Shown in pieces: positions 3,840 through 59,354 of a stretch of 64,000 nucleotides of DNA. Every line of letters begins with the position of its first letter. The stretch's first letter is position 1. The stretch lies in assembly GCF_006345805.1 (NCBI RefSeq), contig NC_043010.1:8308001-8372000 (forward strand). The letters run 5' to 3'. The position numbers and the translations under genes were made by a program. The notes beneath the pieces are model-generated. The model was given only the letters and a program-made list of their open reading frames with translations. It was not told where the DNA came from and made no database searches. This stretch comes from Octopus sinensis. Lineage: Eukaryota.

Positions 3840-4424
3840 AGGTGGCAAGCTGGCAGAAACGTTACTATGCCGGGCGAAATGCGTAGCCATATTTCGTCTG
3901 CCATTATGTTCTGAGTTCAAATTCCACCAAGGTCGACTTTGCCTTTCATCCTTTCAGGGGTAGATAAATTAAGTACCAGTTATGCACTGGGGTCGATGTA
4001 ATCGACTTAATTCCTTTGTCTGTCTTTGTTTTGTCCTTGTGGGTAGTAAAGAAATAGGTATTTCATCTGCTGTTATGTTCTGAGTTCAAATTCCGCTGAG
4101 GTCGACTTTGCCTTTCATCCTCTCAGGGTCGATAACTAAAGTACCAGTTACGCACTGGGTCAATGTAATCGACTTAATCCCTTTGTCTGTCTTTGTTTTG
4201 TCCTCTCTGTGTTTAGCCCCTTGTGGGTAGTAAAGAAATAGGTATTTCATCTGCTGTTATGTTCTGAGTTCAAATTCTGCTGAGGTCGACTTTGCCCTTC
4301 ATCCTTTCAGGGTCCATAAATTAAGTACCAGTTACGCACTGGGGTCGATGTAATCAACTTAATCCCTTTGTCTGTCCTTGTTTGTCCCCTCTGTGTTTAG
4401 CCCCTTGTGGGCAATAAAGAAATA
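3840..4424 (+). mobile_element. SINE family B (Meta/MESC-like core): one head plus three tandem bodies
   Basis: Core GGTCGACTTTGCCTTTCATCCTTTC.GGG...AAGTACCAG three times; tail TAAAGAAATA. Confidence 0.85.
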
Positions 4425-7220: not shown

Positions 7221-7999
7221 TAGTTTTATTTTTATAGCGTGCTTTCACTTCACTACCGAGCGCAGCTCTGTGTGCCTTGGGTATGTGCTGTGATTTGTTG
7301 TGATGCTCTGATGGTTATTGTATGGAAAGTGTTCTGCGTAGGATGTGTGCAGTGCCTAGTAGTGCAATTTTCTGTATGTTATATATGTTTGTAAGTCCTG
7401 GTGTTTTTGTTATGTATTTGTCTGAATATTTTTTTATCATGCCTAATGCACCTACTATGATAGGAATTGTTTCTGTTTTCAGGTTCCACATTCTAGTTAC
7501 CTCTATTTCCAGGTCTTTGTATTTTGAGAGTTTCTCCATTTCTTTTTGAGACACGTTGTCATCTGCTGGTATTGATACATCAATTAGAAAGCATTTTTTT
7601 TCTTCATGATCTTTGACAACTATATCTGGTCTGTTGGCCTTAATTTCTCTATCTGTATGTATCGGCATATCCCAGAGTATGGTTGCTTTCTCGTTTTCTG
7701 TGACCTTTTCTGGTGTGTGCCTATACCATCTTTTTTCTGTTGTTATTCCATAATGTTGGCATAGCTTCCAATGTATGTAGGTTCCAACTCTGTCATGTCT
7801 GTGAATATATTCCTTCTTAGCCAGGACTGGGCAGCTAGAGATAATATGATTTATTGTTTCTTGTCCATCTCCACATATTCTGCAGTTACTTGTAATATTT
7901 CTTTTCATTACATGTTTTTGGTAATTTCTGGTGGAGAGGCTTTGGTCTTGTGCTGCAATTAAAAATCCCTCTGTTTCTGCTTTGAGTCCTGCTTTGATT
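7217..7999 (-). mobile_element. 5'-truncated R4/Dong-type retrotransposon in (TAA)n
   Basis: Open frame with ETEGFLIAAQDQ, CCHC (CRIC...HIISSC), RHD, RPD...D...K..KY restriction-like endonuclease, PIIVGALG. Confidence 0.93.
7315..7997 (-). pseudogene. Uninterrupted C-terminal CCHC plus PD-(D/E)xK endonuclease of an R4/Dong ORF (no RT, no own start)
   Basis: C-terminal part of ORF 7315..8283; the N-terminal part is microsatellite read-through. Confidence 0.88.
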
Positions 8000-8201: not shown

Positions 8202-9230
8202 TGAATGAGAGAGCAGTACATGCTTTCAAAGTTACACTGAGGTAAAATATATGAAGCCCAATATATATTTCTTTACTACCCACAAGGGGCTAAACACAGA
8301 GGAGACAAACAAGGACAAACAAAGGAATTAAGTCGATTACATCGACCCCAGTGCGTAAGTGGTACTTAATTTATCGACCCCAGAAGGATGAAAGGCACAG
8401 TCGACCTCGGCGGAATTTGAACTCGGAACGTAATGGCAGACGAAATACGGCAACGCATTTCGCCCGGCGTGCTAACGTTTCTGCCAGCTCACCCAATATA
8501 ACCATCATGACTACCCAGGCACATGCATCACAACCATATGTGCACAACATGGTGATATCATATCAAGATAAACAGCACATAACCTTGCAGGTGGGACCCT
8601 GTTAGAATTTTCTTCTAGTCAAGTAGCCCATCCCACTCAAAAGATCCCTCAAAATGGTTTCTTTAAGGATGATGAATGAAACACCTAAGTTTTCAGAGGT
8701 GAATTATTATTCAAACCACAAAGAATCCCTCTCAACACATGGCTGTGATGTTCCCCCACTACTCCTGCTCATGATCAGAGATGCACATATCGTCAGCCAC
8801 TAAGGAACATGCTCAACTGGTTAAGGTCAAACAACTGACAAACAAATCTGTGGTATTGAGCAAAATATTTGGTGTGGCCCTTCTTTTATACCTATTTCTT
8901 TATTACTCACAAGGGGCTAAACACAGAGGGGACAAACAAGGACAGATATAGGTATTAAGTCGATTACATCGACCCCAGTGCATAACTGGTACTTAATTTA
9001 TCGACCCCGAAAGGATGAAAGGTAAAATCGACCTCGGCGGAATTTGAACTCACAACGTAACGCAGACGAAATACCGCTAAGCATTTCGCCCGGCGTGCTA
9101 ATGTTTCTGCCAGCTCGCCGCCTCGCTCGCCCTTCTTTTATACCAAGACAAAACAATGTATATGATAACACTTCCAGTCAGTTAAGATCAAAAGCCATGA
9201 GAGCTACTGTCTGGTACTGCATCAGGGCAT
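8202..9230 (-). mobile_element. (TAA)n-associated ~550-bp non-coding element, interrupted by two family-B SINEs
   Basis: Homologous to 11975-12523 and 29961-30516; inserts at ~8266-8491 and ~8893-9128, the latter with 16-bp TSD GCCCTTCTTTTATACC. Confidence 0.85.
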
Positions 9231-12739: not shown

Positions 12740-13990
12740 GCCACAAGTGTACAGAAAAAGGGTATAATTGGTAGATTGCCAGGAGAGCAAATGAATTATA
12801 TAGATGTAAGAATAGAAGAAAAAGGAAAACAAGCTATAAAGAAATTGAAATTCTGAAAGATAATTACACACTGTAAGCTATTAACAGATAAGGACTTACA
12901 AATTGTGGTTACATGAATTAAGATTTAGTTAAATGGTATTAAAGGTATAAAGGTATAATACCAGGCGGCGAGCTGGCAGAAATGTTAGCACGCCGGGTGA
13001 AATGCGTAGCCGTATTTCGTCTACCATTACGTTCTGAGTTCAAATTCCGCCGAGGTCGACTTTGCCTTTCATCCTTTCGGGGTCGATTAAATAAGTACCG
13101 GTTACGCACTGGGGTCGATATAATCGACTTAATCCGTTTGTCCTCTCTGTGTTTAGCCCCTTGTGGGTAGTAAAGAAATAGGTATTAAAGGTATAAAGGT
13201 ATAAAGGTATAAAGATGGTGACCTGGCAGAAGTGTTAACACGCCGGTCCAAATGCCTAGCAGTATTTCATCTGCCGTTACGTTGTGAGTTCAAATTCCGT
13301 CGAGGTCGACTTTGCCTTTCATCCTTTCGGGGTCGATAAATTAAGTACCAGTTACACACTGGGGTCGATTTAATCGACTTAATACCTATGTCTGTCCTTG
13401 TTTGTGCCCTCTATGTTTAGCCCCTTGTGGGTAATAAAGAAATAGGTATTTCATCTGCCGTTACGTTGTGAGTTCAAATTCTGTCGAGGTCGACTTTGCC
13501 TTTCATCCTTTCGGGGTCGATAAATTAAGTACCAGTTACGCACTGGGGTCGATGTAATCGACTTAATACCTATGTCTGTCCTTGTTTGTTCCCTCTGTGT
13601 TTAGCCCCTTGTGGGTAATAAAGAAATAGGTATTAAAGGTATTGCAGAAAACATCAAACTAACACCAGAAAAGTAAAGAACACCCCCTTCGTTTGTTCAA
13701 AATTAATAACATATGTAATGCAGGATGATGATGGCAACAAATCAGTTAAGTGGTTTGAGACCAGGTAAAGACGAATTAATAGGATTCTGGCAAGCTTATG
13801 GGAAAGAAAAAGCCCAGCACCATCATTGCTATTGAAAGGAAGAATAACAGAGAAGTTGTGAGTGGAAGTCAAAGGTGTGAAAGACATTCAAGAGGATTGA
13901 AGAAAAACCGAAAATGGGTTTGCACCAAGTATTGATAGTATTCAGAATTACTGGTGGAAGGAAAACTTATGCTGTATGTGGAAATTAATC
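12740..13990 (+). mobile_element. Old R4/Dong-like fragment (pre-RT region and RT domain 0) split by SINEs
   Basis: Residual motifs ARRANELYRCKNRRK and FAPSIDSIQNYWWK (cf. APGxDxIxNYWWK). Confidence 0.55.
12963..13628 (+). mobile_element. Family-B SINE cluster: monomer, then head plus two bodies
   Basis: Heads at 12963 and 13216; GGTATTAAAGGTAT repeated at flanks. Confidence 0.88.
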
Positions 13991-14941: not shown

Positions 14942-14996
<55 letters not shown>

Positions 14997-15167
14997 CATA
15001 TATACGACAGGCTTCTTTCAGTTTCCATCTACCAAATCCACTCACAAGACTTTGGTTGGCCCGAGGCTATAGTAGAAGACACTTGCCCAAGGTGCCACGC
15101 AGTGGGACTGAACCCGGAATCATGTGGTTGGTAAACAAGCTACTTACCACACAGCCACACAGCCACT
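14726..15167 (-). mobile_element. SINE family A (tRNA head, CORE-like segment, internal microsatellite, AAAGAGT-type tail)
   Basis: Reverse complement of 22521-22939. Confidence 0.88.
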
Positions 15168-15421
15168 ACGTTTATATATTTGTTTTGCTAGATTTTTGAT
15201 GTGAAATCGTGTGTTAAAACAGATATTGTTGTATTTAGGGATGATCATGTTGCCAGTTTAGCTAATAAAAACACACGCACTATATATTTGGTGTTAATTT
15301 GCTTCAGCAGTATTTATTTTTTACATTAGTTGTATTTCGGCAAGAGTTCTTTCATCACAGAAATACAAAATGACTGATCGTTAATAAGGAAAAACACACA
15401 AATAAGAAAGAAGAAAGCAAA

Positions 15422-15466
15422 GGACCACTGATGAGGTCACAGAAGTGCGACGAAAGAACTCTGGCC
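15422..15466 (+). ncRNA. Minimal type I hammerhead ribozyme, copy 1
   Basis: ggacca-CTGATGA-g-gtcaca(gaag)tgcgac-GAAA-gaac-TC-tggcc; short stem I. Confidence 0.68.
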
Positions 15467-15536
15467 GAAATACAGAAATACAAAATGGTTGATCGTTAAT
15501 AAGGAAAGACACACAAATAAAAAAGAAGAAAGCAAA

Positions 15537-15581
15537 GGACCACTGATGAGGTCACAAAAGTGTGACGAAAGAACTCTGGCT
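15537..15581 (+). ncRNA. Minimal type I hammerhead ribozyme, copy 2
   Basis: ggacca-CTGATGA-g-gtcaca(aaag)tgtgac-GAAA-gaac-TC-tggct; perfect 6-bp stem II. Confidence 0.72.
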
Positions 15582-16057
15582 GAAATACAATTAATGTAAA
15601 AAATAAAATAAAGCTGAAGCAAATTAACACCAAATATATAGTACATGTGTTTTATTGGCTAAACTGGCAACATGACCATCCCCAAATACAACAATAGATG
15701 ATAATATAAGTATGCATGAATATATTATGTAATAGAATTCTATATTTCTGAAAGAAGGAATTTATTTCATGTATGCTATTTCTATTAGTTGGACTGACAT
15801 TTTCAACTTGATTGTTTCACTATTCACAGAGTGCAATGAGAACCATGGATCAAATAAAAGGTTAATTTCAAATTTCCGATACCACAACAGAGCTCAATGC
15901 AAGGCACCTGAAGAAAGCTGGAGTATACAGCAGCCAAAATATAAAGAAACAATCCAGATGAGGACATAGTCTGGCTAACATAAGCAGTACACATAATATA
16001 TTATGTATGTATATCTTTTCCCTGACCCAGTTCACTCTGTGAAGTGGTTGTTGTTAG

Positions 16058-19436: not shown

Positions 19437-19666
19437 GTTTCTTTATTACCCACAAGGGGCTAAACATAGAGGGGACAAACAAGGACAGACAAACGAATTA
19501 AGTCGATTACATCGACCCCAGTGCGTAACTGGTACTTAATTTATTGACTCCGAAAGGATGAAAGGCATAGTCGACCACGGCGGAATTTGAACTCAGAACG
19601 TAGCGGCAGACGAAATACGGCTACACATTTCGCCCGGCATGCTAACGTTTCTGCCAGCTCACCACC
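19437..19666 (-). mobile_element. Family-B SINE monomer
   Basis: Reverse complement of 12963-13180; GAATTAGTTAT-like flanking repeat. Confidence 0.85.
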
Positions 19667-22400: not shown

Positions 22401-23043
22401 CCCTTTAGCATTCAAAATGGCCATATCCTGCCAAATATTCTACCTGTTTTGCACTCAAACTGGTCAGGTCTGGCTTCTCACAACAACCCTACAATATCCT
22501 TCTAAAAATTAACAGTTATAGGTGCAGGAGTGGCTGTGTGGTAAGTAGCTTGCTTACCAACCACATGGTTCCGGGTTCAGTCCCACTGCGTGGCATCTTG
22601 GGCAAGTGTTTTCTACTATAGTCTAGGGCCGACCAAAGCCTTGTGAGGGGATTTGGTAGACGGAAACTGAAAGAAGCCCGTCGTATATATGTATATATAT
22701 ATATATATGTGTGTGCGTGTGTGTTTGTGTGTCTGTGTTTGTCCCCCTAGCATTGCTTGACAACCGATGCTGGTGTGTTTATGTCCTCGTCACTTAGCAG
22801 TTCGGCATGAGAGACCGATAGAATAAGTACTAGGCTTACAAAGAATAAGTCCCGGGGTCGAGTTGCTCGAGTAAAGGCGGTGCTCCAGCATGGCCACAGT
22901 CAAATGACTGAAACAAGTAAAAGAGAGAGTAAAAGAGAGTTACCTCATCAAAATCTCAAAGCTACAAAATAATGCACAACTAGTTCAAAATAATGTGAAT
23001 AAGTAACCACTACTTTTGACAAAATAATGTGAATACTAAAGGA
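22401..23043. mobile_element. piggyBac-like MITE interrupted by a family-A SINE
   Basis: TTAA|CCCTTTAGCATTCA...TGAATACTAAAGGA|TTAA. Confidence 0.72.
22521..22939 (+). mobile_element. SINE family A, full length
   Basis: A-box TGGCTGTGTGG, B-box-like GGTTCAGTCCC, tail AAAAGAGAGT repeated. Confidence 0.92.
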
Positions 23044-26805: not shown

Positions 26806-28798
26806 TATGTCATTAAATTGGCCATATAGGCCTTACAAAGCTTGTGGTCTGGACATGGACAAGATGAGATGAAATGAAACAAAATGATACGGATGAGAGG
26901 GATGTCAGCGCCCACCGACCGACAAACCCTCGAATGCAAAGTTTCTTACAAAAATTCTCTTTGTTAGGTCCTCCAAGCAAAGTGAATTGCTACCTGTGGA
27001 CAACTCTGCATCGACAAATCAGGGCCTGCAAAGAGGAAAGCAAACTTTTCCTTGTCAAAGGTTGCTGTGACCTTTGACAAAATTTTTCCAGTTACTACCT
27101 CCGCAGCCACATGCGGAGGCCATATCAGACTACTTGAGCAGACCGAGTACGCACGTTCTCGGTCACACAAGCCGTCCAAAAATTTACTCACTGTCCCTCC
27201 CTCGTGGTAAAGGAGGACAAACACTTCCTCTTCACAGGAAGGGACCTCACACTGCTCCATCAGTGGCACACTTCCCACTGACAGAGCCCTATCCACAGGT
27301 GGCACACATCCCACCTGCGGCTCCGTCGGTGGCCCAGGAACATATGCAGACCGTCCTCTGCTCCTCTTTTTCCTCTTTCTTTTTGAGGCTGTGGGAGGAG
27401 GGGGCTGCGTCAACAGATGCAGGGGTGTCGCTACCCTCCTCCGCCGCCTGAACATTCTTTAGTGAGCAACCATTGTTGCTCACCTTTCTTTATCTTTTCG
27501 TGGAAGCAACTACCTCCATCACTTCCACCTTCTCTTTCTCATGCTCCAGGGCCCCACCACGGCCCCCTGGACAGTTCCTTTTGATATGGCCAGGCTCCAG
27601 GCACAGGTGACACTTGAGGGGGGTGTCCCTCAAGTATTACCGGTTACCTGTACCCGGCCATTTTTAGGAAATGTGGGAACATCATGTCTCCCATGGCCAC
27701 TGGGGTACACAGGGTCAAAGTTGCCTTTGATCCCTCCCAGTTGACTGCGGGAGCAAACTTCACACTCAATAGCCTGGGCCCCGCTATCCCCCAGGCCTCG
27801 CCGGATGGTCTTCTCGATCCATCCCACCTCCGTGCCCGGGGGCAGCCTGCATATCCAGGCTCTTCTTATCTTCCTCCCACAATACGTGGGTAGGAACAAA
27901 ATTTCCTCACCCTCCAAGGGTTGACTAGCAAATTTGCGAGCCTCTTCAGGGGTATCAAATAGCAACCACACCGTTGCATATCTGACACCCCTGGAAATGA
28001 ATTTAATTGTTGGCAAATACACTGCCAACTCCTTTTCAATTGCCATCTTTATGAATAGGGCGATGGTGTCGAGTGATTTGGAGTAGGTTCTCAACACCAC
28101 TGTCCTATCTTCACGGTCTTTCAACCACTTTTTGGGCGGTATCATCTCCCACTCCAAAACTTTGTCTTTTTTCATTGCCATGTTTTTTTTTTTTTTCTTT
28201 GAAAATATATTCAAAATAAAACTTAAAAAGCGAGAAGGAAAAAGAAATCAAAGAAAGTCACAATAAACAAAAAGGAGAAAGTCAAATAAAGTTTAGAAGA
28301 AAGTCAGTAGTTCAGGAACACAGCAAAAACTCTTCCAGCCATTCGGTACTCCCGGCTTAGGTTGAACCCGGAACACCACAACTTCCACAAAAATTGATAT
28401 ACAAATTGTTCAATCGTCGGAGGCAAAGACACTCCCCCAAACAGCAGTTCTCACAATTATTAAAGTTCTTCAAAAGGCACAATACAAGCAATAATTCTCA
28501 TAATTAAGTGAGAAAAATATTCACTCAACATAAACCGAAGACAAATACACCCCCAAACAAAAATTCTCACAATTCAGTGAGAAAAATTATTTGCTCCATG
28601 TAGGCAGAACCAGAATTCTGAAGCTAGTAGGACTTTCTGCTCGTACAAAAACAATTCTCAACAAAAATTCCCACTGGACCCAAAAAACAGAATCTTACCT
28701 TACAATGGAGCTTCAAAATTTTTCAATTCAAGACGGCTTCAGAAGCATGTCTCACCTCTTTGGTGCCGAACACCACAATTATTCGCACATGCACAATG
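26806..28798 (-). mobile_element. ~2-kb ORF1-only L1/Tx1-like retroelement inserted into a family-A SINE head
   Basis: TSD GAA(A/G)CAAGCTTCTT at 26792-26805 and 28799-28812; the SINE continues across the insertion; no EN or RT motifs recognised. Confidence 0.75.
26964..28181 (-). pseudogene. Frameshifted gag-like ORF1 (putative RRM-like region, CCHC knuckle, Lys/Glu-rich linker, unknown C-terminal domain)
   Basis: ORFs 27630..28214 and 26964..27455, plus manually read knuckle CHLCLEPGHIKRNC at 27571-27612. Confidence 0.75.
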
Positions 28799-32974: not shown

Positions 32975-35049
32975 ATGGTGTAGCAGCATAATAGTTAACT
33001 GCTACAAAGGTAAAGGTGACACCCTAGATACAAATAATTACAGAGGTATCAAGCTGTTGGATCAGGTAATGAAGGTTACGGAGAGGGTCATAGCCCAACT
33101 TATTAGGGAGAGAGTCAACTTGGATGAGATGCAGTTTGGTTTCGTGCCATATTTCTGGTAAGACAACTGCAGGAGAAATACCGAGCCAAAGATAAGCTGC
33201 TGTACCTGGCTTTCATTGACATGGAGGAAGCCTTTGACAGGGTCTCTTGATCCCTTATCTGGTGGTCAATGAGGACACTAGGGATAGATGAATGGTTAGT
33301 GAGAGCTGTGCAAGCCATGTACAGGGACGCTGTAAGTAAGGTAAGGGTTTGCAACGAGTACACTGAAGAATTCAAGGTAGAGGTTGGGGGTCCACCAGGG
33401 TTCAGTCCTCAGCCCCCTCCTATTTATCGTAGTCCTCCAGGCAATAACGGAGGAATTCCAGACAGGATGCCCCTGGGAGCTCCTCTATGCTGACGACCTA
33501 GCTCTAATTGCTGAGTCGCTATCAGAACTAGAGTGTGGAAACAAGGATTAGAATCGAAGGGCCTTAGAATCAACCTAGCTAAAACCAAAGTTCTAATAAG
33601 TAGGAAGGCAAGCAAACCACAAATCCTTTCAGGTAGATGGCCCTGCTCAATCTGTAGTAGAAGTGTAACTCTATAAGATATACCCAGTGTAAGCTATGAA
33701 CACATAAGAGGTGCAGCAATATCAAAGGAAGGCGAACTGGGAAGATAGTTTTGATGATGATGATGATGATGTGGCAGATACTCAGGAGCGATAAACACTG
33801 AAAATGCGCAGAGACCAACTTCCGCCATATTCCAGGGAGAAAAACTTGAAGTAGTTGATAGCTTCCGTTATCTAGTTGACCAAATCAATAGCGGAGGGGG
33901 GTGCACTGAAAGTGTGGCTGCTAGAATAAGAATAGCTTGGGCAAAGTTCAGAGAGCTCTTACCTCTGCTGGTGACAAAGGGTCTCTCGCTCAGAGTAAAA
34001 GGTAGACTGTATGATGCATGTGTACGAACAGCCATGCTACACGGTAGTGAATCATGGGCTGTGACTGCTGAGAATATGCGTAAGCTCACAAGGAATGAAG
34101 CCAGTATGCTCCGATGGATGTGTAATGTCAGTGCGCATACTCAACAGAGTGTAAATACCTTGAGAGAAAAGTTGGACCTAAGAAGCATTAGATGTGGTGT
34201 GCAAGAGAGACAACTGCGCTGGTATGGTCATGTGGTGAGAATGGATGAGGATAGCTGTGTGAAAAAGTGCCACACCCTAGCCGTTGAGGGAACCTGTGGA
34301 AGAGGTAGACCCAGGAAGACCTGGGATGAAGTGGTGAATTACGACTTCTGAACATGAGGCCTCACCAAGGAAATGACTAGTGACCGAGACCTTTGGAAAC
34401 CATAATCCGTGGCCTATGCCAGGAGCATAACCAGCCTGCTTATGCGTAGCTTTTCCTTCTTTGGTCACTAAACTTTGCTTGCAAAGACCTGTTGAGGCAA
34501 GTGAAATCAAAATCAAAATTAAAATCATTTCGATGACTGGCATCCGTGCTAACGGGGTGCAAAGAGCACCATACACGTGTGATCGTTGACAGAGAGGCTA
34601 TTCGAGTATGATCGTTACCAGCGTCGCCTTACTGGCACTTGTGCCTGTGCTAGTAGGGTGCCAAGAATACCATCCGAGGTGCGTTATCATTGTGATTGTT
34701 GCCAGAGCAGCCAACTGGCTTCAGTACCCATGGCACATAAAAGGGCACCATTTGAGCGTAATCGTTACCAACGTCGCTTCACTGGCACCTGTGTAGGTGG
34801 CACATGTAAAAAGATTCAAGCGAGGTCATTGCCAGTACCGCCTGACTGGCCCCCATGCAGGTGGCACATAAAAAGCACCCACTACACTCTCGAAGTGGTT
34901 AGTATTAGGAAGGGCATCCAGATGTAGAAACTCTGCCAGATCAAGACTCGAGCCTGGTGCAGCCATCTGGTTGCCAGCCCTCAGTCAAAATCGTCCAACC
35001 CATGCTAGAATGGAAAACGGATGTTAAATGATGATGATGATGATGATGA

Positions 35050-38080: not shown

Positions 38081-38286
38081 TAGGTCCCGGGTTGATTCGG
38101 GTTAACCACAGTAAATAAGGTACTCAATACATAGCAGAGTAAAATTAATTTATTATATAGAAGGAGCTTCTACAGGACCTAGAACTGTTTCATTCAAGAG
38201 AAATCTTCAGGAAGCTCAGGCTTCCTGAAGATTTCTTTGAATGAAACAGTTCTAGTCCTGTAGAGCTCCTTCTATATAATAAATTA
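38081..38286. mobile_element. Penelope-like fragment in (TA)n forming a ~140-bp near-perfect palindrome
   Basis: Arms 38146-38215 and 38220-38286 around a TCAG loop; each arm carries CTGAAGA...GAAAC. Confidence 0.6.
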
Positions 38287-58287: not shown

Positions 58288-58886
58288 AGTTAAGTTAAGT
58301 TAATTTTTTGGCTCAAAAAGCAAAAAGCAAGGCCATGTAGGGGGACATGGAGTTATGTACAGGGTGGTGTTCTTGCAAAGAGTTCAGGCCATTTGTGGTC
58401 AAGGGAGACTTTGAACCGAGCGGTCATCGGCATCTTCACTATCTCGTCTGGCAGCTTATTCCATGGATCTGCAACCTGGATGGAGAAAGCCCCTCTCCTT
58501 TGATTGAGATGAAATTGTCGCAGATAGAACTTTTTGGAGTGACCCCGCAGCCGATGCTCTGGAGCAAGAGTGAAGAACAGCTCTTTCGAGAGGTTACACT
58601 TTCCGCTTATGATGTTGTGAGCAAGAATGAGATCACTACGGCGGCGGCGTTTTTCTAGAGAATAAAGGTCGAGCATCTTCAGCCTTTCTTCATAAGACAA
58701 ATGCTTGAGACCAAGAACCATGCGGGTAGCCAGCTTCTGGACTCTTTCGAGATGCTGTATGTCTTTGAGGAGATAAGGAGGAGAGGCTTGAATCCCGTAC
58801 TCCAATATGGGTCTCACCAGCGTGACATAGAGCGGTAGGGATATGGCTGCTGTGAGCATTCCGAAGTGATATAGTAGCTGGAGCAC
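58288..58886 (-). mobile_element. 5'-truncated CR1-group LINE (ORF2 C-terminus, (AACTT)n tail)
   Basis: LYVTLVRPILEY...LERVQKLATRMV...YEERLKMLDLYSLEKRRRRSDLI...RLRGH...WNKLP. Confidence 0.92.
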
Positions 58887-59354
58887 AGTGGTGTGATGTC
58901 AATGTCATATACCTGTACGACACTATACTAACAAATACAGTAAACAGTCACTCATGAGTAAGTATAAGGTGATAATATGTACCGTGCTTTTGCTAATTGC
59001 CTTAAGGACCCATGAAACCACAAACAGCATAAAGTAATCTCTTGGCCCCTTTGCGCTTAACCCAGCAAAACATCCAGGCTGTGATGGTTTGTCTGTCCTT
59101 GTTTGTCCCCTCTGTGTTTAGCCCCTTGTGGGTAGTAAAGAAATAGGTTGAAGAATGAGAAGGCTGCTGTGGTATCAGGCTGTGGTATCTCAATACAGCT
59201 GAGAAGATTGAAACAATATGAAGGGAAGTACTTTATTCAAGGACATAACATGCAACCCAGTCTAGGAATTGAACACTCATCCTCATGATCATCAGATGAA
59301 CACTACAGCTACAAAGTGTTTCATCATGCTACACACACTACATTATCCTATCCT

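Follow-up and report, generated by a model that had tools for sequence, protein, structure and literature searches.

The insertions of EN+ Penelope-like elements (PLEs), as outlined in the parts of PMC8557442 and PMC3846280 used here, carry an inverted 5'-truncated copy at the 5' end, a tail of 30–40 nt at one end only and microhomologies at the junctions. They often lie in (TA)n-rich targets, and the ORF has its first codons in the pLTR and tail. Target-site duplication is described as optional in PLEs (PMC3846280, in part). An RT, followed by a CX2-5CxxC finger and then by a GIY-YIG domain, defines the Neptune or Nematis type in the available portion of PMC8557442. In vitro, PAc (Poseidon of Anolis) extends both strands, and two RT start sites delimit the tail; hammerhead cleavage is protein-dependent, and insertion proceeds without need of cleavage (PMC11167929).

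The minimal type I hammerheads of metazoan PLEs have a long, 6-bp stem II, a short stem I, a vestigial stem III, an unpaired base between positions 9 and 10.1, and G10.1-C11.1. They occur mostly as single copies or opposite-strand pairs, with no activity as monomers and low activity as dimers (PMC4209133, in part). Animal non-LTR retrozymes, according to the parts of PMC7229834 and bioRxiv 10.64898/2026.07.22.740005 drawn upon here, are pLTR-derived, non-coding and low in GC, and contain two type I cores in head-to-tail units. The excerpted bioRxiv text proposes that retrozymes are born from pLTRs and reports cleavage in one of nine dimers.

The locus described here lies in a stretch of 64,000 nucleotides of Octopus sinensis DNA (the window). 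It is very probably a decayed, protein-less insertion of an EN+ PLE, consisting of two truncated pLTRs head to head and a one-off 115-nt tandem likely made while the insertion junction was closed. Like the EN+ PLE insertions outlined above, it has an inverted 5'-truncated copy at the 5' end, a tail at one end, microhomology junctions, and a pLTR and tail that encode the first ORF codons, and many copies of its family occupy (TA)n-rich targets. In contrast to them, the tail is ~57 nt long, and the window copy has an internal 115-nt duplication and lacks a coding body and a visible target-site duplication. With the retrozymes the locus shares two type I cores, head-to-tail units, low GC, absence of coding sequence and origin from a pLTR, while it is a single locus with no family, known here from its sequence. 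Compared with the retrozymes of PMC7229834, as far as that source is used here (150–450 bp, canonical motif), its unit is 115 nt, its motif minimal and without an Rfam match.

Family and layout of the element

The whole element spans 15167-15696 (530 bases) and is larger than the 15224-15696 marked in the earlier note. Family positions are counted from the first base of the 3' strand of stem II (position 0), so that the cleavage product begins at +16. The parts of the element are as follows.

15167..15223, minus strand: family tail, 57 nt, at the outer end of the inverted arm (arm alignment to family positions 0..+193)
15224..15359, minus strand: inverted 5'-truncated pLTR arm, terminus at the 3' strand of stem II (90.5% identity to 15561-15696)
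15357..15359, no strand: inversion junction, 3-nt microhomology ACA (sequence, junction print and alignment; bridged by the X2 contig)
15357..15471, plus strand: unit 1, duplicate of pLTR positions about -85..+27 (repeat alignment)
15422..15466, plus strand: hammerhead 1, minimal type I, C3 at 15428, predicted cleavage after 15461
15436-15451, plus strand: stem II of hammerhead 1, one A.C mismatch (pairing check)
15469..15473, plus strand: tandem junction, 5-nt microhomology AATAC, 8–12 nt past the cleavage site, unique in the genome
15472..15586, plus strand: unit 2, 5' half of the direct pLTR, family positions about -91..+25 (repeat alignment)
15537..15581, plus strand: hammerhead 2, minimal type I with a perfect 6-bp stem II, C3 at 15543, predicted cleavage after 15576
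15587..15696, plus strand: 3' half of the direct pLTR, its terminus being the no-tail end of the family (3'-end clusters, alignment)

The ~135-bp inverted arm that terminates in stem II, as claimed earlier, is real: 15224-15359 and 15561-15696 are 90.5% identical over 137 columns, and the arm stops at the 3' strand's first base. Its proposed start at 15224 has to be moved, as the left arm runs on to 15167 as the 57-nt family tail; the right arm has no tail. The inversion junction is spanned by the X2 contig (15299-15414, 0 differences), which is DNA by our guess and possibly from the source sample. An ATG at 15672 matches the likely ORF start of the family, and eight codons are retained.

Since no target-site duplication is visible at the locus, where the left flank is the end of a SINE, the outer boundaries of the element are defined by homology alone. 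At other family pairs (e.g., L003, L049, L058, L102), target-site duplications are visible by eye. The repeat adjoining the left tail (14974-15166) is very abundant, SINE-like and 5'-clipped, with an 8-nt duplication, and may have erased the target-site duplication; further copies are found in the window at 22517, 37040, 47145, 51037, 51628, and 54648. A MITE with terminal inverted repeats and a 4-nt target-site duplication was considered and rejected: the apparent duplication is the start of the tail, and the inner ends differ between copies.

In the 2.72-Gb genome, we found 2,662 DNA candidates for the element (40 scored), and two pLTR motifs had 3,042 and 4,244 exact matches. Among the best 30 of the 2,662, many copies extend upstream, by up to 1,135 nt, into endonuclease codons, which are contiguous with window-type pLTRs in L002 and L027. 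A protein search with one upstream endonuclease piece yielded 2,921 candidates with open frames of up to 1,044 aa. RT motifs occur in the 1,044-aa frame (L163) together with a CX4CxxC finger and a GIY-YIG domain that has the PLE cysteines; a CCHH motif and two cysteines between the GIY and YIG halves were recognized by eye from the description in the part of PMC8557442 at hand. The Pfam matches were weak, all below the Pfam cut-offs (RVT_1, E 0.0022 and 0.00046; GIY-YIG, E 0.00047), and the only matches of the EN part in a PDB sequence search were UvrC (E 0.15) and an intron endonuclease (E 0.38). Neighbours in a protein atlas at 0.96–0.97 carry RVT_1, HTH_animal and GIY-YIG. In L168, the tail continues into the beginning of the ORF, and an ATG at +117 is in frame with it. 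Because the longer copies run into RT and GIY-YIG codons, the window element is a pLTR of an EN+ PLE, in agreement with the earlier assignment of the minimal hammerhead to a Penelope-like pLTR.

The order of RT, CX2-5CxxC finger and GIY-YIG is the one given for EN+ PLEs in the cited parts of PMC8557442 and PMC3846280. Judged by the CX4CxxC motif only, the clade would be Neptune or Nematis. PAc belongs to a different clade and lacks the linker finger according to the scheme of PMC8557442, as far as it is used here; also, the hammerhead in our family is located ~100 nt upstream of the likely start codon, unlike that of PAc (PMC11167929). The long copies form a younger subfamily, ~80% identical over the pLTR region, whose arms are up to 99.3% identical. 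No title or abstract seen on hammerheads or Penelope in octopus describes this family.

Several other features were observed. The N-terminal part of the ORF in L163 (2710-3450) is asparagine-rich, as in rotifer Penelope elements (PMC3846280, in part). L072, L075, L076 and L090 (near 1500) hold more distant repeats that have the 3' half of the hammerhead in common, with different flanks and decayed cores, and are probably other PLE families. The window also has open frames resembling LINE remnants at 7315-7900 (-), 33770-34351 (+), 58353-58898 (-), and 26964-28247 (-); of these, Pfam matched just the first, and weakly (zf-RVT, E 0.0004). Another dispersed repeat forms 184-bp tandem dimers at 4035-4424 and 13262-13634, with inverted copies at 8260-8493 and 19438-19664, and 38174-38259 is a near-perfect palindrome of 86 nt.

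The hammerhead motif and its tandem duplication

Two CTGATGA...GAAA..CTC motifs in 115-bp tandem units had been read from the sequence before, and we recovered both the cores, at 15428 and 15543, and the 115-nt period. A type I pattern with a complementary 3-bp stem I occurs only at these two sites on both strands of the 64-kb window. Stem I has 3 bp, and stem II 6 bp with a 4-nt loop, with one A.C mismatch in copy 1; both hammerheads have an extra G between A9 and G10.1. Stem III is nearly absent, as had been noted, with 2 bp closed by a 2-nt AA loop. Pairing checks predict the same cleavage positions as before, C15461 and C15576, and the catalytic bases are all kept in both cores. The suggested search with type I hammerhead models was unsuccessful: no Rfam hammerhead model matched 15200-15720 at E≤10, and the matches shown for the whole window were microsatellite-driven miRNA models, with no hammerhead model among them.

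The 6-bp stem II, short stem I, vestigial stem III, unpaired base between 9 and 10.1, and G10.1-C11.1 are all as in the hammerheads of PMC4209133 (in part), and so is the prevalence of single copies or opposite-strand pairs. The differences from that account, to the extent it is cited here, are the non-palindromic AA of loop 3 and, in the younger subfamily, a C for A9 and often a U at the cleavage site. Across 133 aligned family copies, the hammerhead is located in the pLTR, and it is the ordinary minimal type I motif of the family's pLTR. The majority sequences of the old and young subfamilies differ at 3 of 47 motif sites, compared with 9 of 60 and 10 of 109 in the flanks; this comparison within the family revealed no compensatory stem changes. 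The young-subfamily C at the conserved A9 was seen in 22 of the 133 cores (for example L163, 6370-6410, L165, L171, and L172). This change in the youngest subfamily could be either a tolerated core variant or a loss of ribozyme activity in the active lineage.

The units 15357-15471 and 15472-15586 are identical at 108 of 115 positions (TRF: period 115, 2.0 copies, score 417). The tandem junction pattern, with one mismatch allowed, has one match genome-wide, which is this locus, and the pair is the only one of same-strand cores within 1.5 kb among 237 loci (some overlapping; ~113 intact cores). As the junction is unique and lies 8–12 nt past the cleavage site, the tandem does not represent a retrozyme family, and the earlier suggestion of a retrozyme-type unit is not supported.

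Compared with the majority of the older subfamily, the units have 4 and 5 differences over 108 sites; compared with each other, they have 7 over 115. Given the similarity of these divergences, the duplication is hardly younger than the insertion; they fit either duplication during insertion or slippage soon after it. Unit 1 begins exactly at the inversion junction, and short junction-anchored repeats occur also in L104 and L206. We consider the one-off tandem a likely by-product of junction closure during insertion. The competing explanation, that replication slippage or unequal exchange produced it long after the insertion, independently of reverse transcription, could draw on the short microhomologies that flank the duplicated segment and on one substitution and one extra base that the units have in common relative to the reference copy. 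It is unlikely, given the coincidence of the duplication start with the junction and the recurrence of such repeats in other copies; moreover, of the nine deviations from the majority, seven are found in one unit only.

Arm ends, insertion and the stem II breakpoint

Arms were sampled with an exact 26-mer near the 3' end, using the first 100 of 178 matches; 85 distinct loci with 119 arms entered the analysis, five duplicates having been removed. Among the matches listed, 25 of the 85 loci contain a directly joined head-to-head pair, with exactly one tail in 23, none in two and two tails in none (one double-counted spurious match was removed from these counts). The 3' ends in the same matches cluster at +130..+139 and +185..+199, and the locus follows this layout, with a tail on the left and none on the right. 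The 5'-truncated inverted copies and one-sided tails are known for PLE insertions (PMC8557442, PMC3846280, in part). As in PAc, two RT start sites would bound the tail, and the extension of both strands reported there (PMC11167929) fits the pattern of one tail per pair.

The 5' ends have a hotspot at -95..-71, with 21 of the 119 arms listed and 2.5% ends per nt at risk compared with 0.26–0.55% elsewhere, an about fivefold difference among these matches. The sequence upstream is unrelated among the listed arms ending there. In the window, the hotspot corresponds to 15357-15375 and 15466-15490. Both tandem units start at -85 to -91, inside this strongest hotspot. Our guess is that the RNA 5' end lies inside the pLTR at about -85.

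From the observed family membership, arm layout, single tail, unique tandem junction and microhomologies, the following course of insertion is proposed. The RT-endonuclease would cut AT-rich DNA, and cDNA would be primed from both ends, starting at two internal sites, +137 and about +195. The right cDNA would run to the preferred stop of the family near -85 to -91, perhaps the 5' end of the RNA, and the stretch from there to +27 would be copied twice through the 5-nt microhomology. The left cDNA would stop in stem II and be joined via 3 nt of microhomology, and the locus would later drift 4–8% from the family majority.

The earlier note explained the breakpoint inside stem II by a structure-guided template switch. 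As a rule, this is not supported, as arm ends are no commoner in stem II than in the flanks. Among the matches listed in the unbiased 26-mer sample, stem II holds the ends of four arms, a rate of 0.35% per nt (1,130 nt at risk), compared with 0.50–0.55% in the flanks. A genome-wide pattern for stem II breaks gave 74 rows, of which five were dropped (three near-duplicates and two intact variants); the remaining 69 were assigned by eye, the first 30 being checked by script. For a comparison window just 3' of stem II, 76 of the 100 matches listed (180 in total) were assigned by eye, the other 24 being indel variants, deletions or duplicates. Scaled for the number of anchors and for modelled filter pass rates, the rough rates are 0.44% ends per nt in the stem II window and, for the matches listed, 0.40% in the 3' window. 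Stem II was therefore rejected as a breakpoint hotspot, its per-nt rates matching the flanks. Another break pattern (100 of 230 rows), dominated by indel variants, was left out of the counts.

Within stem II, the 69 breaks fall on 16 positions, with a mean of 4.3 and 13 at the base where the window copy breaks, an about threefold enrichment (p 3e-4 vs uniform). A model that favours microhomology two- to threefold per base expects 9–13 breaks at this base (p 0.12–0.5), with an imperfect fit, as it over-predicts the next base. Two further peaks, of 10 and 12 breaks at two bases of the 5' strand, are unexplained by the model (p under 0.01). A perfect stem II fold-back was found once genome-wide, along with one partial instance; of the arms reaching the window's breakpoint base, about 1.3% end there. 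Thus the breakpoint at the locus needs no special mechanism, and the threefold peak leaves room for a weak structural effect at stem II.

It is doubtful that the inversion itself was structure-guided, the left cDNA having stalled in stem II, switched strand by self-complementarity and taken up loop bases before joining unit 1. The junctions here and in L013 do read on into bases matching the forward loop, and the peak at the breakpoint base, the two 5'-strand peaks, the fold-backs and a hairpin-type junction that recurs in four rows immediately 5' of stem II point the same way; against this stand the flank-like rates in both samples, the microhomology expectation for the breakpoint base and the small share of arms that stop there. 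The recurrent junction, identical in L061/L176 (1500-1560) and at three places on C20, is suggestive of fold-back priming. Several copies have lost parts of the hammerhead through recurrent internal deletions that run between short direct repeats.

Prospects for cleavage and meaning of the locus

Even with both cores intact, the locus most likely releases nothing today, and release of a small circular RNA would be unlikely. Release of a 115-nt monomer would be possible geometrically, with the inverted arm expected to pair with one hammerhead in a read-through transcript. In four public runs (RNA by our guess), the family-type pieces were at most 44 letters long at 99% identity, and none crossed either junction, which speaks neither for nor against expression.

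A working pair would be transcribed from about 15361 and cut at the predicted sites after 15461 and 15576, and a host ligase would close a 115-nt circle, making the locus a newborn, unspread retrozyme. The intact catalytic bases, the start of unit 1 at the family's 5'-end hotspot, and a double-hammerhead fold that can be drawn with a 2+2-bp stem III around two A.A mismatches are consistent with this, and the locus would come close to the operational definition of a retrozyme (bioRxiv 10.64898/2026.07.22.740005, in part). We nevertheless regard it as very unlikely. The drawn fold has a predicted energy of -6.1 kcal/mol compared with -23.3 for the MFE structure (energies omit tertiary contacts), a short competing hairpin is predicted over the hammerhead core, and in a read-through transcript that includes the left arm, this arm is predicted to pair across hammerhead 2. 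Loop 3 is non-palindromic, stem II of copy 1 is mismatched, and the pair has not spread. The published record points in the same direction: even in dimers, minimal PLE hammerheads show poor cleavage (PMC4209133, in part), cleavage needed protein in vitro (PMC11167929), eight of nine tested dimers did not cleave (bioRxiv 10.64898/2026.07.22.740005, in part), and 115 nt is below the 150–450 bp of the units in the cited part of PMC7229834.

Equally remote is a wider reading, in which one PLE integration, by doubling the hammerhead-bearing half of the pLTR at its own junction, created a dimer-competent pair, a retrozyme at birth giving a 115-nt RNA circle, with the cDNA ends of the family recording the RNA 5' end and, weakly, cleavage in vivo. 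Among the 76 assigned breaks of the matches listed, 10 clear and up to seven ambiguous ones lie at +16 (15462 and 15577 in the window), the predicted cleavage site. Under microhomology models, the low count has p 0.11–0.28 and the high one p of about 0.002 or less, and four of the 10 clear breaks listed have one common microhomology junction. If this reading were true, few natural ribozyme circles of animals would be smaller than this one, and the cDNA ends would be a genomic footprint of in vivo hammerhead cleavage.

That the tandem is an assembly artefact, as its uniqueness and the lack of a contig across the whole element could suggest, is hardly credible, as the units differ at seven sites and a contig of run X1 crosses the tandem junction with 0 differences, at a depth (47.9 vs 35.4 in the flank) close to single-copy, with 27 letters on the short side of the junction, under the bar of 31.

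The locus is thus ordinary debris, an aged leftover of a Penelope-type family with thousands of copies. Junction-anchored duplication during insertion would provide one concrete route from a single pLTR hammerhead to a tandem pair, and the formation of such a pair is the first step proposed for the origin of retrozymes. The family is more useful than the locus, as its thousands of copies and long open frames record the starts and stops of PLE cDNA. In particular, the pattern of one tail in 23 of 25 pairs among the matches listed quantifies a known feature of PLE insertions and connects it with the two start sites observed in vitro.
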